In this document: in pieces, positions 20,972-64,000 of the stretch
Numbering within the stretch: position 1 is the first letter of the stretch
Layout: the number at the start of each line of letters is the position of its first letter
Translations under genes and position numbers: made by a program
Source of the DNA: Candidatus Latescibacterota bacterium
Lineage (GTDB): Bacteria > Latescibacterota > UBA2968
Length of the DNA: 64,000 nucleotides
Direction: 5' to 3'
Assembly (NCBI GenBank): GCA_038279365.1
Contig: JAYODI010000017.1
Location: 1-64,000 of the forward strand
The notes under the pieces: model-generated
What the model was told of the DNA's origin: nothing
Database searches by the model: none
The model's input: the letters and a program-made list of their open reading frames with translations, nothing else

Positions 20972-22720
20972 TTGGAACGCGTCCCTCTTAGCCACTACGC
21001 CGCACTCTTATCACAATATCTTCGCCCTTACTGGAAACGCGTTATTGTACTTGGCGTTTTCATGTTCTCTGGCATTGGCCTCAATTTGCTCAACCCTCAA
21101 ATTGTTCGCTACTTTATCGACACCGCACAGGCCGACGGTGCCATCCGTGATCTCGTTTGGGCAGGCATTGCCTTTCTTGCCGTGGGCATTATTCGCCAAG
21201 GTGTGCAAATTGTCAGTTCCTACCTCGGCCAAGATGTGGGTTGGCGTGCCACCAACCAAATGCGCAACGATCTGGCCCACCATTGCCTCACCCTCGACAT
21301 GGGTTTTCACCATCAGCACACACCAGGTGAAATGATCGAACGCGTCGATGGTGATACCACAGCCCTCTCCAACTTCTTCTCCCAATTTGTCATCCAAGTT
21401 ATCGGCAGTGTGTTTTTTCTCCTTGGCGTACTCATTTTGGTCTACCGCGAAGACTGGCGCGTAGGCACCGCACTCACCATTTTTTCCGTTGTCGCCTTCT
21501 TCGTATTCAATCTTACACGCAATATAGCCGTGCCTATCTACACCGCCGAGCGCGAAAGTTATGCACGTCTCTACGGTTTTTTGGAAGAACGCTTGCTCGG
21601 CCTTGAAGACATTCGCACCAATGGCGCAGGCAATTATGCCATGAACCGTTTTTTCAATGTCAACAATGGCGTGTTTGCCCGCATCAAAAAATCGGAAGTC
21701 ATGAGCGAAATCTTACGCGCCATCACAGGTATTATGTTTGCACTCGGATATGCACTGGCAATGGGCATGGGCATTTGGATGTATCAAGAAGGTACTTTTA
21801 CCATTGGTGCTGTTTTTCTCGTTTTCAACTACACCTCAATGTTGCGCGAACCCCTTTTTCAAATCAGCCAACAAATCAACGAACTCCAACGTGCCACCGC
21901 TGGGCTCAAACGCATTGAAGAACTCCACCGCATTCAAACAGGCATTCAAGATGGCCACCAAAAATTGGTGGCCACACGCCCCTTAGGTGTCACCTTTGAC
22001 AACGTCACCTTTGCTTACAACCCCAATGAAAACGTACTCAAAAACGTTACGTTCACCCTCGAACCAGGTAAAACACTGGGCCTTTTGGGGCGCACAGGCA
22101 GTGGCAAAACCACCATCACCCGCTTGCTCTTTCGTTTCTACGACATTCAAAGTGGGCAAATTCGTTTGGGTGATCAGCCCATCCAAAACATCCACCTCGA
22201 TGACCTTCGCCAACACGTGGGCCTTGTGACCCAAGATGTGCAACTTTTTAATGCCTCTGTGCGAGACAATCTCACCCTTTTTAAACCCAGTGTTTCCGAT
22301 GACAAAATCATCACCATCTTAGAAGAACTTGGGTTAAGCACGTGGTATCACGCCTTGCCCAATGGCCTCGACACCGAGCTCAGCACCGGAGGCAGTGGTC
22401 TGTCTGCTGGTGAAGCCCAATTGCTCGCCTTTACCCGTGTCTTTCTCAAAGACCCAGGCCTTGTCATTCTCGATGAACCGTCTTCACGCCTCGATCCTGC
22501 CACAGAGCAAAACATCAACCGCGCCGTAGAACGCCTCTTACAAAATCGCACAGGCATCATCATTGCTCATCGCCTCGATACCGTACAGCGCGTTGACAAC
22601 ATTCTCATTCTTGACCACGGAAACATCCAAGAATTTGGCTCCCGTTCAGAACTTGTCTCAAACCCCCATTCGCAATTTTCACGCCTACTCAAAACAGGCT
22701 TAGAGGAACTCATCACATGA
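20972..22720 (+). CDS. ABC exporter, fused TMD-NBD, subunit 1; start uncertain
   Basis: Walker [25 protein letters not shown] before TTG 20972. Confidence 0.92.
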
Positions 22721-24474
22721 CCATGGGGCAAACCACATGGCGCCTCCTCAAGTATCGGCCTGGCCTCTTTTTGGCCACCATCTTTTTTCGGGGCATTGAT
22801 GACGTGGCGCCATTTTTGGCAGGCGTGATCATGAAAAATTTCTTCGATGCCCTTACTGGCCAAGCCGAAGCCGACTTTGGCGCGTGGACACTGGTGGCCC
22901 TTTTTGTGGCCGTAGAAGTGGGTGATCGCATCGCCCTCTTAGGTTCGGCATATGCTTGGCCACGCTGGTGGTATGCCGTAGAAACCCTTCTGCGCAGAAA
23001 CCTCATGACCGCCATTCTCGAAGTGCGCAATTTGGCGCACATTGCCAACGCTTCGGGCGAAGTCACCAACCGTTTTCGCGACGATGTGATGGGCATCATT
23101 CAATATCTTAACCGTTACATTCACATGTGGGGCAACCTCGTTTTTGCAGGGCTCGCCATCACCTACATGGCCAAAATTGATCCCTTTATCACGTTCATCA
23201 CCATCATCCCAGCCATTTGTGTGGTCATTATTGTTGACTTTGCCCGCAAATACATCCATAAATATCGCACCGCCCAACGCATTGCCACCGAGCGCTCCAC
23301 CAACTTTATCAACGAAATGTTTCAGTCTATTCTTGCCATCAAAGTGTCCAACACCGAAACCCACGTGACCGAGCATTTTCGCATCCTCAACGATGAGCGC
23401 CGCAAATCCACCCTCATTGACAACCTCTTTAATCAAATCTTAAGCTCCATCAACTTCAACCTCGGTCACATTGCCACAGGCGTGATCCTCATTCTTGTGG
23501 CACAAAAAATGAAATCGGGTTCATTCACCGTTGGCGACATGGCGCTTTTTACCACTTATGTCGGTCAAGTGGCACGCAGCGGTTCGCTCTTGGGCACCAT
23601 TCTCACCAACCACAAACGCGCCGAAGTCTCTTATTTTCGCATGGCCCATACCATAGACGACATTCCTCGCGAGCGCATTTCAGAACACAATCCCGTCTAT
23701 CTCAATCAAGAAGCCCCAGCTTTACATCTGCCTGCCCGAACCGAGAAAGACACGCTTAAAACACTCACCATTCGCAACCTTTCTCATACCTATGGCAAAA
23801 CCAACAACGGCATTCACAACATTGACCTCACAGTGCCAGCAGGGTCTTTTACCGTTATCACAGGACAAATTGGCTCGGGCAAAACCACCCTCATTCGCAC
23901 CCTCTTGGGTGTGCTGCCAAAATCAGAAGGCGATATTTTGTGGAATGGAGAATCTGTCACCGATCCCAAATCTTTCTTTGTGCCACCACGCTGTGCATAC
24001 ACCCCACAAATTCCACACCTATTTAGCGAAACCCTGCGCGACAACATTTTGCTTGGGCTTCCTGACGATCCCAAAACCATCGCACAAGCCATTCACAACG
24101 GCGTCATGGAAACCGATGTGCCCACCCTCGAAGATGGTCTCGACACCGTTGTAGGCCCACGAGGTGTCAAACTCTCTGGCGGGCAAATTCAACGCACAGC
24201 CGCCACACGCATGTTTATTCGCAACCCCGAGCTACTCGTTTTTGATGACCTTTCAAGCGCCCTCGACGTCGAAACCGAACGCATCTTATGGACACGCGTC
24301 TTTGAGCAAAAACAAGCCACCTGTCTTGTCGTGTCACACCGTCGCCCAGCGCTTCGCCGTGCCGATCAAATCATTGTTCTTAAAAACGGGCATATCGAAG
24401 CCGTGGGCACACTGGATGCACTCCTCGAATCGTGCGAAGAAATGCGCCAATTGTGGCAAGGAGAAGACACATGA
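22717..24474 (+). CDS. ABC exporter, fused TMD-NBD, subunit 2 (probable heterodimer partner)
   Basis: [27 protein letters not shown] overlap. Confidence 0.92.
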
Positions 24475-57052: not shown

Positions 57053-57096
57053 AAAAAAAATCCGCACACTGATAACATTCAGCGTGCGGATTTTTA
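57053..57096. terminator. Probable bidirectional terminator
   Basis: aaaaatccgcacactga..tcagcgtgcggattttt. Confidence 0.75.
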
Positions 57097-57199: not shown

Positions 57200-57973
57200 C
57201 TACCCCGCAAAAGGAAACGTCCCTGCATACCCCAACTGCTCCAACGTAAATTGCGGATTGCTCACAAACTTAATCCCCGGAAACATCGGGTTTTGCTGAT
57301 AGTGCAACACAATATTGGCACGGTGTTGCCCCGGTGCATCTGGCCCCGTCTTTGCGCCCTGGTGTGGCACATGGCTATAAAACAAAACCATATCTCCAGC
57401 ATTGGGGTACAAGTCTACATGAGGTTGCTTGTCACACCACACCTGAAACGGATTGGTGCGATCATCAGTATACCCCCAGTGTTGGCGCATTTCATCGGGA
57501 ATGGGTTTTTTAAAAAACTCTTTAATAAACGTCAACCGACCTGTTTCAGGTGTGTTGTCCGTCAAATAAAGCGTCGTATTCATGCACAAAGCAATCGCAG
57601 GTTTTTGGGCTTCGGCCTTTTCTTCTTGATACCAATAATCGTAAAAATCCATATGCCATTCTTGCAAATATTCACGTGGGTTCACATGGGCCCGCAAACT
57701 GCGCAACTGACACTGCTTGCCCATAATCGCCTTCAAATAAGGCGCCACACTTTCATGCCCAATCAAAGCCTTAGACATCTCTGGTTGCAACTGAAGCAAT
57801 TTTTCAAAAGCCACATTGCCCACACTGTTGTTGATCTCATACGCTCCACGATCATACAAATCGTATAAGATCGTCTTCCACTTTTCAACCGTTTCCTTGT
57901 CCAACGCATTTTTGATCAACAAAAAACCATTGTCTTCCAAGTCCTTCAAATTTTTTTCAAAAACATCAGCCAT
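57200..57973 (-). CDS. PhyH-family dioxygenase (HxD)
   Basis: LEDNGFL, WHMD, AGDMVLF...PHQG; GGAG RBS. Confidence 0.82.
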   Translation of the reverse strand: MADVFEKNLKDLEDNGFLLIKNALDKETVEKWKTILYDLYDRGAYEINNSVGNVAFEKLLQLQPEMSKALIGHESVAPYLKAIMGKQCQLRSLRAHVNPREYLQEWHMDFYDYWYQEEKAEAQKPAIALCMNTTLYLTDNTPETGRLTFIKEFFKKPIPDEMRQHWGYTDDRTNPFQVWCDKQPHVDLYPNAGDMVLFYSHVPHQGAKTGPDAPGQHRANIVLHYQQNPMFPGIKFVSNPQFTLEQLGYAGTFPFAG

Positions 57974-58022: not shown

Positions 58023-61000
58023 TTACACCATGACCTTTTCGGCCAAAATGCGTTCACCCTTTTCGCGATACCGCTTCTTATCGGCTGGTTCAACCGTGCG
58101 CCAAATCAAAAACTGTTTGCGCAACGCATTAATAAAGCTTTGGTTCACCCGCTGCCACGATGCCGAATCACCACTTAAACGATCAATTGTAAGTGTGAGT
58201 GTAAAAATGTCGTATTCTTCCATAGGCCGCGCTTCAAAATGCACCTGTTGACTCACACCCAAATCAAAAGGCGCCAACCACGCCGTGGTATCAATGGTAT
58301 ACGCTTTTCCAGTCTCCGTTTCAATGGCGTCAAAAGTCGCCCCCTCGGTGAAAAAGTTGCCCATATCTTCCGACTCGTGCGCCACAAAAAAATCGACCAA
58401 ATACACAGACAACCCAAACACATCGCGCCCACCCACCGTAAATGGAAATTCAAACACCCAGCGATCACCTTGTGTGGGTGGCAACTTCCACCGGCGCGTC
58501 ACATCGGGCACCGCCATATGAGACGCTTGGCGAGCCGGATATAGCGATGACAGCAACACCACCAACATCACCAGCGCCGAAGAAATCACTGTAGACATAG
58601 CCGAATAATTCAACACAAACCCATCCAACCACCCACCCCAAAGCAACACTTTGGCCACACCTTGCCCCATTAAATAACCCGACACCGTACCCAACACCGC
58701 ATACACACACGCCTCAGCAATAAACAAAAATGAAATGTGCACAGGTGCCAAACCCACGGCCGAATACACGCCAATTTCACGAAAACGTTCATACACCGAA
58801 CCCATCATGGTATTCAGCACAATAAGTGCCGCCACCAAAATGGGAATAAACAAATTGGCCAACCCGCGCAAAGACGTATTGCCCAATGAACTATAAACCG
58901 ACACATTAACTTTTCCCGTTGCATCGGGAATACCCGCAAACAACACCACCGACAACCGCGACAAATAGTCTTTCACACGCGCTTCTACATTCACCCCCTC
59001 ATCAAACCGCACCGCCACAGATTGCAACGGACTGCCAATGCCACGCAAGAAGTCATAAGGCACCAAAATCACCACATCGGGGTGCAAATGATCAAACGGT
59101 GCAATTTCCACTTCGGGCATCTCCAAACCTTGTCGCTCGCGTTGTTCCGTTTGTGTCATGTCTTCCACCACATCAGAACCCGTGGCCTGAAAGTCGGCAG
59201 GAGTAAGTGGTTCTTCATCCAAGTCGTAAAACTTTTGCATCTTTGTTGCATTCATCAACCCAATAACCCGCAAGTTTTTGCCAAATAATCGCACATAGGC
59301 CTGGCCCACGTTGCTTTTGGTCACACCCAATTTGTTCGCCATTTTTTGGGGTAAAATGCACGCCTGCTCACCAGGCAAAAACCAACGCCCTGCCACCAAC
59401 AGCGTATCCAAATGGGTCACCATTTTTTCTTCAGGCGTCACACCCAACACACCCAATGCTTTGGTACGCGAGGTATCTGCCGTTACTGGAATGGCTTTTT
59501 TATTGCGCGTCATATACCAGCTTCGCGGTGCCACCGTACCCACATCTTCAAAATTGACCCGCGCATAATCATAAGCCGTTTCTTCCAGTGCCCCCCAAAA
59601 CTTGCTGCGAATCAACATGCCCGGATACGCCCCATCGGTATCACGAGGCAAACGATGATATTCCAATGCCGATTGAATCGACGTAAAAGACAACACCGTA
59701 AAGGTCAGCAAAACCAATGTCACAAACGTCAAACAGGTTCGCAATTTTCGACGCTTCATATTGGCAATGCCCAAATGAAATGCCGCCAAAGAGGCACTGA
59801 TGCGCCCCACATCCGTTTCGTGCAACATCACTTCGGCACTGCGCAACCGCCGAATATTTTCATTAAAACGCGCAGACACAATCGAAATCACAAAAATGGC
59901 CAATGCAAAAATCACAAACGCCAACAAAATCACCATTGGGCTCGACAACTCAAATGCCGGATGCACCTGCGACAAAAACATCCAAATCACCACAAACACA
60001 CCCGAAAAACCTAAAATCTGGTACCGAATATCGGCAAAGGTAAACAACAAGCGTTCCACAAAATAAGCACATGGAATGACCAACAACATGAAGAAAATCA
60101 CACCCTGGATCACATCATTTTGTGTGGCTTTCACATCGGGATACGCACGCGATTCAATGCCCATACCCGCACGGGTATATTTCACAAAATCGCCCCACCG
60201 TTTGTCTTGCATAGCGGCTTCTGCCCGATCCAAATAAGACTTGGATTGTGCATGCAAATTGTTAAGCCGCATATTCTCCACCGAATAAGCCGCCAACTCA
60301 TTCATCCGTGCTTCATTGAGCAACCACATATCTTTGGCCGCCTGATACGACGTGCGCAAAAACGACCCATGTGTGAGCGTTTGAAAGCCTTTTCCACGCG
60401 CCATCTCTTCGGTGTCCGACCCAGATGAATTGAGCAACAAATACCGCACCCCTATCGAACCTGAACGCATCGCAATTTTCACGCGTTCACCCGGTGTGGT
60501 AAACACCACACCCACCGGTTCATCGGCACCAAAACCAATGGCATAGCCATATTCTTGCGGTGCCGTATTGCCCGGCCCATAAATGCTGATGCTCGACAAT
60601 TTGGTCAAATACCGTGGATCAACGGTTTCATAAAAATCGGTGGCGATACACGGAAACAAAATGCGCGTGGTTTTTGTAATCCACCAATCCATATCAAATT
60701 CACTGCGATAAATGCGCGCCTGACGCCCCCGATTGGGCGCATACGTAATCTCACCTGAGGTGGGGTCAATATAATAAGACTGAACATCCACACGCCGCTC
60801 GGCAATGCCCGGCATATAAAACTCACCCTGTTCATCGGCCAAGTCAAAATAGATGCGTCGCACCCCTTTAACCGACTTGTCATTGCCCATACGCAGTGAA
60901 GAAATCGCACCCGCACGTGGCCTGTCGGGTGTGATGCTTCGCCTTGGAAAGGTGCGCACAAAACCTTTTAAACCCCGCATGTCATCCTTGGGATCAATGG

Positions 61001-62513
61001 GATAGGGCGGAATAAAGTTTTCCTGATTCATACCCAAATCCAACACACCTGCAAGCGTGCGAATTTGCCCCGTCAAATTTTTCACGTTCACATAGGCCGG
61101 CACATCCAAAGGGGTATCTACCCGAAAGCGTGCATCATTCACCGTAATCATCGACAGCGATGGCAACCCAGCCGTCATGGTGACCTGCCCATCGGTGCGA
61201 ATCATTTGCCCTGGCACATACATCTCCCAACTCATGCCCCCTTTTGGATTAATACCATCAACCAAAGCATCTTCTGGCGCCAAACCAAAACGCTCGGCAA
61301 TCGCCTGCGAATACGTCACAAATGTTTTTCCAAAAGGCGTAAAAAATCGCTTAAAATAAACGCTGTTGACATTGTTGTGCCACACACCAATCTCATCGGT
61401 TTGGCTCGTCAAATCCAGGCCAATAAACAGCTTTAAGTCCAATGGCTCAGTCATCAACTTGGCAAAGTGTTCTTCTTTGCGCGCATGCCGAGCCAAAAAA
61501 TCACAAATGCCCCGAAAGCCCAAATGATGCCCCGAGCTGGCCAAAAACAACACCGTGTGTTTGGGGGGGTATTGCGCAAAATACTCGGCCAACTTCAACA
61601 GCCCCACAATAGAACTTGCCATTTCGGCACCCGGTGCCAGTGCCGGTACCACCGACATGGCATCGTAATAGGCACTGATCACAATCGTTTTCTCTTTCAG
61701 CACAGGATCTGTACCCGGTATCCACCCCAACACATTGGGCACGTCGTGTTTTTCCCAAAGCATTTCGGCCTCAAGAGATACCGTTAATGAACCCTTTGCT
61801 TCAAGTTCGGCCTGAAGTTTGCGCCCCGACGCCTTATCAATCCAAAACCGCTCCACACTGTTGGGTACCTGCAAAAACTTTTGCTCGGCTTCTGCTGTTA
61901 ACGTCGAATCGGGCTCTATAAAAATAACCTGCTTGGCCCCCAACATCCCCGCATTGATCCAATTGTTCCACGAATTAAATTCCATCAACACAATGGCCCC
62001 TTCCATCTCATGCCCATCAAAAGAGGCAAATGTGCCATCGCCACCATAAATCAATTGGCCTTGTGTTTGAGGAACGGTAGATGTCTTGACCAAGTTGGGC
62101 CACACACTGTGAAGAGCAAACGTTTCACCCGTGTCCAGGCGCTGAAGCACCCCACCTTTATCAATGGGTGCCGTTACACCAAACAACTCGGTTTCCACAT
62201 TGGTTAACCCCAACCGCTCAAATTCTGACACAATAAATTGTGCGGCTTGCGTGTGCCCATCATACCCTGGCACACGTGAACCAAAATTGGCAAACCGATT
62301 GATCAACGCTTCTACATCGGCTTCTATCACATGGTTTAACACACGGTCAGCAACACGGTCGGCTCGTGGCACAGGAATAGGGGCTACAGCCGGAGGCGTC
62401 TCCACCCCAAACAGCGTGTTCAAAATGGGGTTCATCCGATCAGGCCCCAGTGCCATGACCACAAAAGCCAAAGCCACAACGGCTACAAGCGTATAGGATG
62501 TTATTTTTTTCAT
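58023..62513 (-). CDS. Large membrane protein: PA/M28-peptidase-like domain fused to FtsX/MacB-like permease
   Basis: SRVPGYDG, NVLGWIPG..P.LKEKTIVISAYYD; NMKRRKLRT.LT; NTMMGSVYERFREIGVYSAVGLAP, YPARQAS. Confidence 0.85.
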   Translation of the reverse strand: MKKITSYTLVAVVALAFVVMALGPDRMNPILNTLFGVETPPAVAPIPVPRADRVADRVLNHVIEADVEALINRFANFGSRVPGYDGHTQAAQFIVSEFERLGLTNVETELFGVTAPIDKGGVLQRLDTGETFALHSVWPNLVKTSTVPQTQGQLIYGGDGTFASFDGHEMEGAIVLMEFNSWNNWINAGMLGAKQVIFIEPDSTLTAEAEQKFLQVPNSVERFWIDKASGRKLQAELEAKGSLTVSLEAEMLWEKHDVPNVLGWIPGTDPVLKEKTIVISAYYDAMSVVPALAPGAEMASSIVGLLKLAEYFAQYPPKHTVLFLASSGHHLGFRGICDFLARHARKEEHFAKLMTEPLDLKLFIGLDLTSQTDEIGVWHNNVNSVYFKRFFTPFGKTFVTYSQAIAERFGLAPEDALVDGINPKGGMSWEMYVPGQMIRTDGQVTMTAGLPSLSMITVNDARFRVDTPLDVPAYVNVKNLTGQIRTLAGVLDLGMNQENFIPPYPIDPKDDMRGLKGFVRTFPRRSITPDRPRAGAISSLRMGNDKSVKGVRRIYFDLADEQGEFYMPGIAERRVDVQSYYIDPTSGEITYAPNRGRQARIYRSEFDMDWWITKTTRILFPCIATDFYETVDPRYLTKLSSISIYGPGNTAPQEYGYAIGFGADEPVGVVFTTPGERVKIAMRSGSIGVRYLLLNSSGSDTEEMARGKGFQTLTHGSFLRTSYQAAKDMWLLNEARMNELAAYSVENMRLNNLHAQSKSYLDRAEAAMQDKRWGDFVKYTRAGMGIESRAYPDVKATQNDVIQGVIFFMLLVIPCAYFVERLLFTFADIRYQILGFSGVFVVIWMFLSQVHPAFELSSPMVILLAFVIFALAIFVISIVSARFNENIRRLRSAEVMLHETDVGRISASLAAFHLGIANMKRRKLRTCLTFVTLVLLTFTVLSFTSIQSALEYHRLPRDTDGAYPGMLIRSKFWGALEETAYDYARVNFEDVGTVAPRSWYMTRNKKAIPVTADTSRTKALGVLGVTPEEKMVTHLDTLLVAGRWFLPGEQACILPQKMANKLGVTKSNVGQAYVRLFGKNLRVIGLMNATKMQKFYDLDEEPLTPADFQATGSDVVEDMTQTEQRERQGLEMPEVEIAPFDHLHPDVVILVPYDFLRGIGSPLQSVAVRFDEGVNVEARVKDYLSRLSVVLFAGIPDATGKVNVSVYSSLGNTSLRGLANLFIPILVAALIVLNTMMGSVYERFREIGVYSAVGLAPVHISFLFIAEACVYAVLGTVSGYLMGQGVAKVLLWGGWLDGFVLNYSAMSTVISSALVMLVVLLSSLYPARQASHMAVPDVTRRWKLPPTQGDRWVFEFPFTVGGRDVFGLSVYLVDFFVAHESEDMGNFFTEGATFDAIETETGKAYTIDTTAWLAPFDLGVSQQVHFEARPMEEYDIFTLTLTIDRLSGDSASWQRVNQSFINALRKQFLIWRTVEPADKKRYREKGERILAEKVMV

Positions 62514-62558
62514 CGTTTTTAGATCACAAAGGCAATGTAACAACCGCAACTTTTGTGA

Positions 62559-64000
62559 TTATCCTTTCATATGCACCGGATGCCCATTCTCAGGAAACCA
62601 AATGGCATCAATAACAGTGGAAAACGCAACGCCCAAAACATAGCCCACCAACAACCCCACAAACAACGGTTTAGACTTTCGATATATGGAGGGCCCACCA
62701 ATTTTTAAGATCACCAACTTGAGCAACCATGTGAAGAATATGGTAAAACTGATGTGCCGCAACAAATGCGTGCCCGACACCGCCAAACCCACCGGATGAA
62801 GGGGCCACCACACAAACCGATGACGCAAAAAAATCAACCCCGCCATCAGCCCACTGCCAATGACAAAAAACAAAAACTCAGAGGGTTCTTTAATAAAAAA
62901 CGGGGGGGCATTGGGGTGTTTTTTGAGCACATCAATAATATGGTTAAACTGACGGTCGGCACTCGATGGAATTTCAAACGCCCCAAAACTATAGGCCCCT
63001 TCCACATATCCCAACCGAATCGTGATATACACACTAAACACAAAACTCACCACAATGGCCAAGGCCACGGCCCCCATCAAATTGCGCCGTTGACGAGCGG
63101 GTATGCCTTCGGCAATGCGCCCCACATGCATCATCCCTGGCAACATGCGCCCCGTCCAGTTGCCTGCGGCAATATACACAAACCGCTCAGCCACATGTGT
63201 GACTGCCGAAATATTGCGATTGCCCCAAAAAGACAAGATCAAATTCCAAGACCCCACCGGTGGCTCTTGCAAAGAGATCATCACCGGAATGCCCGTATCG
63301 GCCAAAATTTTGGCCAACCCCACATACGAAAACACAAACATCACCAACAGCAAAAACGCGAGCAATGGGTCAAAGTGCAACTGCATCATCCACACATACA
63401 AAAACACCATGCTCACCACAATGCCAATCAACGCCCCCCGATAAGACAGCATCTCACCCGAATCGTCAATGCGATCATCACCCTTCCCAATGGCCTTAAA
63501 AAACACATCTTTCAAATGCGTGCGGGCCACCCAAAAAATCGACAACACCAGCGTAAAATAAGCCCCTTGCATTTGCCAACGATACACACCACGCGGTTCA
63601 TAAGGGGTCATCACCTTATACCCCAGTTGATTGAGCCAACCGCCCTCAAAAACAAACAACAAATCAAAAAACCACAAACTAAACAAAACGTCTAAACTCG
63701 CAAAATAGGCAAAAAACAACGTAAAAATGCCCAAATACCCCCGAATGGGTGGATACTGCCGATCAAACCACACCCAACTGCCTCTGCCAATGGGAAACTG
63801 CGGAAAACCAGGTAAAAAATAACTGATGCAATTCCAGGCAATGGCACCAAATGCAAGGGTAAACCCAATCCAAAACAATCGGTTTCGCGTAAAGGCAGGC
63901 AACCACCCTTTGCCATCTCCGGGCTGAGACACCATCTCTATCAAGGGGGCCACAATAGGAAACGCCAACCGCTCATTTTCGGCCCACTGCTTGCGAAACA
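62559..64000 (-). CDS. DUF6785/DUF6784-type polytopic membrane protein; 5' end outside window
   Basis: Frame open to the edge: FRKQWAENERLAFPI; NRLFWIGF, FSLWFF, WWPLHPVG, KPLFVGLLVG. Confidence 0.8.
   Translation of the reverse strand, partial: FRKQWAENERLAFPIVAPLIEMVSQPGDGKGWLPAFTRNRLFWIGFTLAFGAIAWNCISYFLPGFPQFPIGRGSWVWFDRQYPPIRGYLGIFTLFFAYFASLDVLFSLWFFDLLFVFEGGWLNQLGYKVMTPYEPRGVYRWQMQGAYFTLVLSIFWVARTHLKDVFFKAIGKGDDRIDDSGEMLSYRGALIGIVVSMVFLYVWMMQLHFDPLLAFLLLVMFVFSYVGLAKILADTGIPVMISLQEPPVGSWNLILSFWGNRNISAVTHVAERFVYIAAGNWTGRMLPGMMHVGRIAEGIPARQRRNLMGAVALAIVVSFVFSVYITIRLGYVEGAYSFGAFEIPSSADRQFNHIIDVLKKHPNAPPFFIKEPSEFLFFVIGSGLMAGLIFLRHRFVWWPLHPVGLAVSGTHLLRHISFTIFFTWLLKLVILKIGGPSIYRKSKPLFVGLLVGYVLGVAFSTVIDAIWFPENGHPVHMKG

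Follow-up and report, generated by a model that had tools for sequence, protein, structure and literature searches.

The stretch analysed here (the window, 64,000 bases) comprises bases 1–64000 of a 70,725-base contig (C129; window and contig numbering are identical) from the 6.03-Mb, 199-contig genome of a Candidatus Latescibacterota bacterium. Near its end, the minus strand encodes a giant membrane protein (hereafter, the giant), in which a pseudo-peptidase head is joined to a MacB/FtsX-type module, next to proteins of the DUF6785/DUF6784 family. The locus reads as a four-gene operon in the order DUF6785b, DUF6785a, giant, and PhyH, with a strong hairpin at either side and intergenic gaps of 2, 45, and 49 bases in operon order. 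It runs 2.6 kb beyond the window edge. The original prediction for this window had the operon continue past the edge and counted one DUF6785 gene; the contig beyond base 64000 holds the rest of DUF6785a and, in addition, the tandem copy DUF6785b. The features of the locus are the following:

57056..57095, no strand assigned: terminator-like hairpin with a 17-bp stem and a T tract, marking the 3' end of the operon where the PhyH gene and the M19 dipeptidase gene converge.
57200..57973, minus strand: PhyH-family 2-oxoglutarate/Fe(II) oxygenase of 257 amino acids, last gene of the operon (Pfam PhyH PF05721, 31.2 bits against a cut-off of 22).
58023..62513, minus strand: giant membrane protein of 1496 amino acids from ATG 62513 (Pfam and open reading frame analysis).
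62559..64000 in the window (contig 62559–64559), minus strand: DUF6785/DUF6784 protein "a" of 666 amino acids, with the OPT/Yellow-Stripe fold.
Contig 64562–66646, outside the window, minus strand: DUF6785/DUF6784 protein "b" of 694 amino acids, 76% identical to "a".
Contig 66647–67529, outside the window: approximately 0.9 kb of non-coding DNA 5' of the operon, read as leader or promoter DNA.
Contig 67530–67568, outside the window, minus strand: terminator-like hairpin with an 18-bp stem, ending the preceding PIN-gene unit.

The open frame of the giant spans 58023–62549 on the minus strand (1508 codons from TTG 62549), and the public gene call of an identical protein begins at ATG 62513 (1496 amino acids); residue numbers below are counted from TTG 62549. 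For DUF6785a, the window frame 62559–63998 on the minus strand covers the C-terminal 479–480 residues only. The PhyH protein matched no NCBIfam family at E ≤ 0.001, and an Rfam search of the 15.7-kb locus, including the leader of about 0.9 kb, returned nothing at the gathering score. RNA-library contigs from three metatranscriptome runs of three studies matched parts of the giant, PhyH, and DUF6785b genes with 0–1 differences; a single 202-nt contig bridged the DUF6785a/giant junction, and another single contig matched the leader (locus L001, 11810–11984). These contigs are scattered pieces, so that the uncovered parts carry no meaning, and they give a weak indication that the operon is expressed.

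The giant is composed of the following parts, all on the minus strand:

62448..62504 (residues 16–34): N-terminal membrane anchor, by hydropathy; a long helix (2–35) in the AlphaFold model.
61014..62378 (residues 58–512): PA and M28 aminopeptidase fold with a degenerate metal site, by model, Foldseek, VIA, and profile alignment.
60114..61013 (residues 513–812): beta-rich domain and three-helix stalk, by the secondary structure of the model.
59877..60113 (residues 813–891): extra three-helix membrane cluster, by hydropathy.
58515..59732 (residues 940–1345): MacB/FtsX-type module with transmembrane helix (TM) 1, a periplasmic core domain, and TM2–4, by Pfam and PDB matches.
58026..58514 (residues 1346–1508): conserved cytoplasmic C-terminal domain, by invariant alignment columns.

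Hydropathy resolved eight membrane segments (16–34, 813–831, 841–859, 873–891, 940–958, 1227–1245, 1259–1277, and 1318–1336), grouped as 1+3+1+3. The FtsX three-helix domain (PF02687) was detected at residues 1234–1345 with 53.6 bits against a cut-off of 25.5, and MacB_PCD (PF12704) at residues 984–1120 with 32.6 bits against a cut-off of 27, that is, between TM1 (940–958) and TM2 (1227–1245). The best PDB sequence relatives of the module were MacB, YtrF, and LolC/E/F; the E value for MacB 5lil was 7.6e-9 with the single sequence and 4.5e-20 with a profile. This layout fits a predicted order of a cytoplasmic N-terminus, the anchor, a periplasmic head of ~780 residues, three helices leading back to the cytoplasm, the MacB order, and a cytoplasmic tail of 160 residues. 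The extra three-helix cluster carries an HPAF motif that is conserved throughout the giant family. No relative of the tail was found by Pfam, NCBIfam, PDB sequence or profile searches, or the ESM Atlas.

Thus, Pfam, hydropathy, and the model agree with the protein that the original prediction had described: about 1500 amino acids with an anchor, a PA/M28 head, two membrane clusters, a MacB/FtsX module, and a tail. Like MacB of MacAB-TolC and the type VII permeases LolC/E, FtsX, YbbP, and YtrF, the giant has an FtsX domain and a periplasmic core between TM1 and TM2. Unlike MacB, it has no fused or adjacent ATPase at this locus, and it bears four extra membrane helices, a PA/M28-fold head of ~800 residues, the conserved 160-residue tail, and a neighborhood of OPT-fold permeases with which it is occasionally fused. 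The orphan permeases of the ADOP type (TIGR03434) likewise contain an FtsX-type permease with no adjacent ATPase gene; the giant matched this model weakly (20.8 bits), far under its cut-off of 622 bits, and differs in having a single FtsX module and another ectodomain.

The head was modeled with AlphaFold (residues 13–812, alignment of 75 rows) at a pLDDT of 94.3 and a pTM of 0.90, and residues 46–500 of the model matched M28 and PA-M28 aminopeptidases. VIA aligned the head with the Aeromonas aminopeptidase 1rtq (Z 29.6, rmsd 2.7, 271/291 residues), and the first Foldseek match was 2ek8 (E 1e-23), followed by BSAP, PaAP, transferrin receptor 1 (TfR1), and GCPII. The structural matches included, beside TfR1, a chain of the glycosylphosphatidylinositol transamidase, which we take to be GPAA1. 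In profile searches the head matched nicalin (E 2.7e-11), nicastrin (~1e-4), and TfR1 (~3e-5). The fold searches, whose matches were taken up by the M28 part, assigned no fold to residues 513–812. The Pfam M28 model (PF04389) gave no match for the window giant at E ≤ 0.1; two of its three paralogs in the genome, those on contigs C52 and C20, pass the same model with 30.4 and 30.7 bits against 21.3.

A profile alignment with the active enzymes 2ek8 and 6hc6 placed the motifs ISAYYDAMS, PGAEMASS, and SSGHHLG of the giant on the HxD, GAxDD, and EE motifs, respectively. On the canonical M28 assignment of the zinc-binding residues in these enzymes, the zinc-binding His of AHYDS is replaced by Tyr294, the bridging Asp of GAxDD by Glu309 or Met310 (the alignment is ambiguous here), the Glu-Glu pair by His341-His342 (His-Phe in the other paralogs), and the second His ligand, of the SDH motif, by Gly454. 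Asp379 is the sole ligand position kept. Three of the five metal ligands and the catalytic Glu are therefore replaced according to this alignment, and a fourth ligand is ambiguous. At the same time, Tyr295, Asp296, His341, and Asp379 are near-invariant among 61–75 diverse relatives; thus, judging by the alignment, the pocket is conserved yet is not a canonical di-zinc site. A mono-zinc site of the glutaminyl-cyclase type was also considered, such enzymes being among the structural matches, and was rejected: the corresponding ligand positions are replaced too.

The motifs AYYD, GAEMASS, and SGHH, from which a degenerate, receptor-like M28 head fused to a MacB/FtsX module had been predicted, are thus present and aligned on the catalytic motifs, with Pfam, the model, Foldseek, VIA, and the profile alignment in agreement; the canonical ligand set of an ordinary active aminopeptidase appears to be lacking. 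In keeping the M28 (and PA) fold with an altered catalytic site, the head resembles TfR1, nicastrin, nicalin, and GPAA1. Unlike these eukaryotic proteins, it is bacterial and fused to an ABC (ATP-binding cassette)-type membrane module, and Tyr295, Asp296, His341, and Asp379 line its former active site.

Both DUF6785 proteins of the operon exceeded the cut-offs of PF20581 and PF20580, with 334 and 76 bits for full-length DUF6785a and 331 and 78 bits for DUF6785b. A model built from a 54-row alignment (pLDDT 88.4, pTM 0.89) was matched by Foldseek against the PDB to barley Yellow Stripe 1 (7wst, 7wsr) with an E value of 1.9e-7, a probability of 1.0, and TM-scores of 0.58/0.63, all other matches having a TM-score of 0.17 or less. 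VIA-align gave Z 23.4 and rmsd 3.9 over 540/601 residues for the same protein, and Z 5.7 for the next best. The OPT-like fold that the original prediction had put forward for a Foldseek test was in this way recovered over the whole DUF6785 plus DUF6784 chain. The kinship is, on the evidence of the model, one of fold only, because the Pfam OPT model (PF03169) had no match at E ≤ 10 in any of the four DUF6785 proteins tested, nor any match in the genome. The sequence identity with Yellow Stripe 1 is approximately 10–12%, and, in a further difference from that protein, DUF6785 is encoded with an ABC-type partner. The ESM Atlas yielded just leads (0.79) to clusters named "peptide transporter" or OPT. 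The YS1/YSL group is part of the OPT family, whose characterized members are, to our knowledge, importers. The matched barley protein, HvYS1, belongs to the YS1/YSL group and is described as a proton-coupled symporter of the elevator type that forms homodimers (PMC9691689).

A full-text literature search, in which supplements were outside the scope, found no mention of DUF6785, DUF6784, or their accessions, in line with the predicted status of the system as uncharacterized. The genome contains 28 DUF6785 genes, 24 of which do not lie beside a giant, and related genomes often have 20 or more copies. The paralogs adjoin genes for PL8, heparinase-type, and pectate lyases, sulfatases, glucuronyl esterases, enolase-superfamily and sugar-isomerase-like enzymes, as well as PhyH oxygenases, M1, M81, and zincin peptidases, and sugar-acid enzymes; the recurrence of PhyH genes near them is neighborhood evidence for the predicted feeding of PhyH. 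DUF6785 looks like the general permease of catabolic loci resembling polysaccharide utilization loci in the Latescibacterota phylum. Examples among the 28 loci (L002–L026) are C81:59064–61064, C3:35099–37099, and C69:12482–14494.

Such abundance raises the question of whether the giant and DUF6785 are mere neighbors, the adjacency being incidental and the giant acting alone. Their association was assessed in related loci, the best 79 of at least 648 relatives confirmed by tblastn, which come from Candidatus Latescibacterota, some labeled Gemmatimonadota, that are close kin with 51–89% identity. Upstream DNA of 2.3 kb or more was available for 69 full-length giants: in 51 of them a DUF6785 gene lies directly upstream (gap ≤ 400 bases), and in eight more it lies 0.7–3.8 kb upstream. 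Within the genome itself, three of the four giants (on C129, C125, and C52) adjoin DUF6785. In a tree of 54 DUF6785 proteins, 27 of the 30 rows labeled as giant-adjacent formed one clade with an SH-aLRT support of 100. Both copies of the window operon and the one from C125 belong to this clade; none of the 24 non-adjacent paralogs of the same genome falls within it. The exceptions were the long-branched C52 copy and L098, which fell in a second clade with the non-adjacent paralog L004 of this genome, and L072, labeled adjacent though located 7.5 kb downstream of the giant.

The two families also occur as one protein. A search with the head region of the giant (query residues 66–800) retrieved P0020, a natural fusion of 2120 amino acids with MacB_PCD, FtsX, DUF6785, and DUF6784 in one chain (giant::DUF6785::DUF6784). 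Its 90% cluster, of which 40 of 56 members were read, contains four distinct 2120-residue sequences from several sources, as well as a 2083-residue NCBI record named [quoted passage not shown] A word-indexed search for longer DUF6785 fusions found none, which is weak evidence; the P0020 fusion itself came by another route. Among 61 Latescibacterota genomes, DUF6785 was present in 47, the giant head in 48, and both in 47; the 13 genomes with neither all belong to one family, and the one discordant genome, with the giant only, is 67% complete. This profile is weak as statistics, because it is essentially one family-level split, and is consistent with linkage. The head domain is matched by 2264 representative clusters, and genomes holding the giant family contain 1–7 matches each. 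As a separate observation, the whole DUF6785-giant pair is duplicated in tandem in one relative (locus L088:1066–14551).

Hence the co-occurrence elsewhere that the original prediction had proposed to look for was found, both as adjacency and across genomes, and the fusion was found in addition. The two genes are tightly linked in evolution, as far as can be told from these comparisons. The copy number of DUF6785, with most copies away from any giant, is what would be expected of incidental neighbors; the dedicated partner clade, the fusion protein, the conserved order and short gaps, and the matched presence and absence speak against it, and we already disfavor this explanation as highly improbable.

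A third membrane partner is common in the family. Among the 74 giants with 2.7 kb or more of DNA downstream, 48 are followed by a polytopic protein of ~806–814 amino acids, here called P810. Neither Pfam nor NCBIfam has a family for it; its profile matched the N-terminal ~196 columns of the DUF6785 profile (hhalign 93.5%, E 2.3e-7; 53% with a single sequence), and the two proteins share an E(R/K)LxFP motif, which makes P810 by profile comparison a remote DUF6785 relative. P810-like genes accompany the C125, C52, and C20 giants of the genome and are absent from the window giant, where a tandem DUF6785 duplicate is found instead, an arrangement common to the nearest relative, L082. The common module of the family thus appears to include P810 as a partner that the window locus lacks. 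In one subgroup (loci L031–L040), two to three TPR proteins of ~800 amino acids flank DUF6785, and a family-less protein of ~220 amino acids follows the giant in place of P810.

A Poribacteria-like lineage (relatives of P0091, one cluster member of which is named Candidatus Poribacteria) has giants of ~2450 amino acids with N-terminal LysM and NMB0315-domain-I modules. The gene order in this lineage is giant, P810-like, a protein of ~330 amino acids termed "c43," PqqD-like, and then an ATPase of the LolD/FtsE class. In L114, the only such locus examined gene by gene, the spacing is tight, no plus-strand terminator-like site lies between the genes, and no other FtsX gene is nearby; an S49 peptidase is encoded upstream. 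The c43 and PqqD-like genes follow the giant and P810 in two distant lineages (L114:19169–21458 and L098:17077–18445). In the genome studied here, the c43/PqqD pair (C182:119378–123686) is located apart from any giant, and an ABC_tran match (268-residue frame) occurs ~1.8 kb downstream on the same strand. For c43 and several small neighbors, Pfam and NCBIfam gave no family. The PqqD-like protein, a putative peptide chaperone, is a possible link of the giants to peptide handling.

ATPases of the LolD/FtsE/MacB class pair with FtsX-type permeases, and an ATPase of this class is associated with the giant family. A 262-residue ABC ATPase is encoded upstream of the cluster in 17 of the 60 related loci with at least 8 kb of upstream DNA; its best NCBIfam scores, all under the cut-off, were to LolD, DarD, DevA, YbbA, FtsE, and MacB. 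In the Poribacteria-like lineage an ATPase gene occurs in 10 of the 36 loci listed, many of which are short contigs (~16 have enough downstream DNA), and in the one locus examined it is apparently part of the operon. The ortholog in the genome studied here is 78% identical and lies at C187:554–1327, 553 bases from the contig end, beside a divergent AP_endonuc_2 gene that its counterparts in the relatives also adjoin; C187 has no FtsX gene. C187 (1–1327) and C125 (1–542) both end inside a minus-strand gene, the C125 half having a cohesin domain, and we infer from this that the two contigs may be neighbors. If they were joined, the ATPase gene would precede the DUF6785-giant-P810 cluster of C125, the arrangement seen in related genomes. 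The original prediction had stated that no ABC ATPase is present in the window. Two ABC_tran domains do occur there, at 22037–22483 and 23815–24249 on the plus strand, in frames of 617 and 619 amino acids ~34 kb from the operon, and are by their size probably a pair of fused half-transporters. The statement stands for a stand-alone ATPase beside the operon and for the adjacent part of this contig, but not for the family, given the LolD/FtsE-class genes of related loci and the ortholog on C187.

With its putative ATPase partner, the giant resembles a type VII ABC system, and some relatives also have a HlyD-type adaptor, as in MacAB-TolC. One alternative is an export machine, in which the OPT-fold proteins or another route would bring a peptide or metabolite to the periplasm, and the giant, an adaptor, and an outer-membrane duct would expel it in a MacAB-TolC-like manner, the head holding the cargo. 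Genes for a HlyD/RND-type adaptor are in the cluster in 10 of the 60 related loci, the ATPase scores near those of darobactin, bacteriocin, and DevA exporters, and the PqqD-like chaperone and the conserved protein of ~330 amino acids follow P810 in two lineages. The known MacB-type pumps export. On the other side, the adaptors are restricted to the group of loci with 64–69% identity; no membrane-fusion adaptor and no outer-membrane gene was seen in the window operon or the rest of the contig, where no search was aimed at an outer-membrane duct; and no precursor-peptide or maturase genes were recognized among the annotated neighbors. Moreover, the DUF6785 paralogs sit in catabolic loci, and the one solved relative, HvYS1, is an importer. 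We regard export as an unlikely but live alternative.

The pseudo-peptidase head also brings to mind EnvC, which is a catalytically dead peptidase. In FtsEX-EnvC and YbbAP-TesA, a MacB-like module is coupled to a periplasmic peptidase-like or hydrolase domain, as in the giant; in the giant, the domain has an M28 fold rather than a LytM or lipase fold, is part of the same chain, and is joined by extra polytopic partners. By analogy, an envelope-remodeling regulator might use the ATP-driven pseudo-peptidase domain to activate or position cell-wall or surface hydrolases, the OPT-fold permeases recycling the released (glyco)peptides. FtsEX acts via EnvC, which regulates the amidases AmiA and AmiB (PMC7668044). 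The LysM and NMB0315-domain-I modules of the Poribacteria-like giants, the S49 peptidase upstream of one of them, and the M19 dipeptidase gene adjoining the window operon would suit this role. However, Pfam found no LysM in the window giant, the loci have no conserved gene for a cell-wall hydrolase, and the copies examined lie in variable catabolic neighborhoods; one to seven matches per holding genome also exceed the need of a house-keeping division system. Such a regulator is improbable in our judgment, though likewise a live alternative.

We favor, with a probability of roughly 0.55, a conserved inner-membrane machine in which the giant, the OPT-fold permeases, and a LolD/FtsE-class ATPase capture and import a peptide-like substrate. 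In this machine the giant would be the mechanotransmission subunit of a type VII ABC system (MacB/FtsX/LolCE-like), its MacB-like core being extended by four membrane helices, the conserved cytoplasmic tail, and the periplasmic head of ~800 residues. Its dedicated partners would be elevator-type permeases of the OPT/Yellow-Stripe fold, here the two tandem DUF6785/DUF6784 proteins and in most relatives one DUF6785 and P810, and energy would come from the ATPase, which in this genome would be encoded elsewhere. In the periplasm, the pseudo-peptidase head would capture a substrate, peptide-like or otherwise oligomeric, and leave it uncleaved. Movements of the MacB-like core, powered by ATP, would then hand the substrate to the OPT-fold permease, or gate it, and the permease would carry the substrate into the cell, where PhyH and the neighboring hydrolases may act on it. 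Uptake is favored because the only solved relative is an importer, the DUF6785 paralogs lie beside catabolic genes, and amidohydrolase, epimerase, aldolase, and microcompartment genes are found in the giant loci. Pointers to a peptide-like substrate are the two folds, aminopeptidase and OPT, the PqqD-like chaperone of two lineages, and the neighboring peptidases. A further proposal, tentative and rather doubtful, is a new class of hybrid transporter: a type VII ABC mechanotransducer, driven by ATP and carrying a pseudo-aminopeptidase receptor, would be physically coupled, and in one lineage fused, to elevator-type OPT-fold permeases. In that case an ABC motor would load, gate, or energize a secondary-transporter fold, and the system would serve Latescibacterota and neighboring phyla as a major device for capturing nutrients.

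Several observations weigh against uptake by such a machine. The type VII ABC systems known so far work by expulsion, extraction, or activation in the envelope, and we know of none that assists import; the adaptors of the related loci point to efflux, and the PqqD-like chaperone is as compatible with a made peptide being exported as with import. Neither the surroundings of the window operon nor the 6.7 kb of contig beyond the window hold a stand-alone ATPase gene, and the ATPase gene of the L064-type loci has a 17-bp hairpin behind it, so that there it is probably a separate transcription unit, a neighbor rather than a member of the operon. The linkage also has gaps: 10 of the 69 giants have no DUF6785 upstream (one of them has it 8.4 kb away), the C20 giant adjoins just a P810-like gene, and the adjacency counts are not independent because the sampled loci are from close kin. 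With Tyr, Asp, Glu, His, and Asp conserved in its M28 pocket, the giant might yet have an active site of an unorthodox kind, and the sign of expression is weak because RNA libraries can hold DNA. Taken together, the original interpretation is partly supported: it was right in architecture, and the function is putative.

The composition of the genome deserves mention as a separate feature. GC skew ranged from -0.10 to -0.29 in every 5-kb bin of contig C129, and the contigs longer than 20 kb fell into two groups with a skew of about -0.2 and +0.2 (range -0.26 to +0.30). This strand asymmetry is unusually large for a bacterium.

As far as our searches reach, a MacB/FtsX module with a degenerate M28 head linked to, and at times fused with, a secondary-transporter fold has no precedent, and the literature search returned no relevant paper on the combination of FtsX, M28, and a permease. 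For the orphan family DUF6785/DUF6784, the fold (OPT/Yellow Stripe) can be assigned with confidence, and a likely role emerges. The family ranks among the most expanded membrane families of a phylum widespread in sediments and estuaries, and the assignment alters how the capacity of these uncultured degraders for transport should be read. Should the parts work together, they would represent a new coupling of ATP-driven periplasmic mechanics to membrane transport and a bacterial counterpart of the eukaryotic receptors with a dead M28 fold (nicastrin, nicalin, and TfR).

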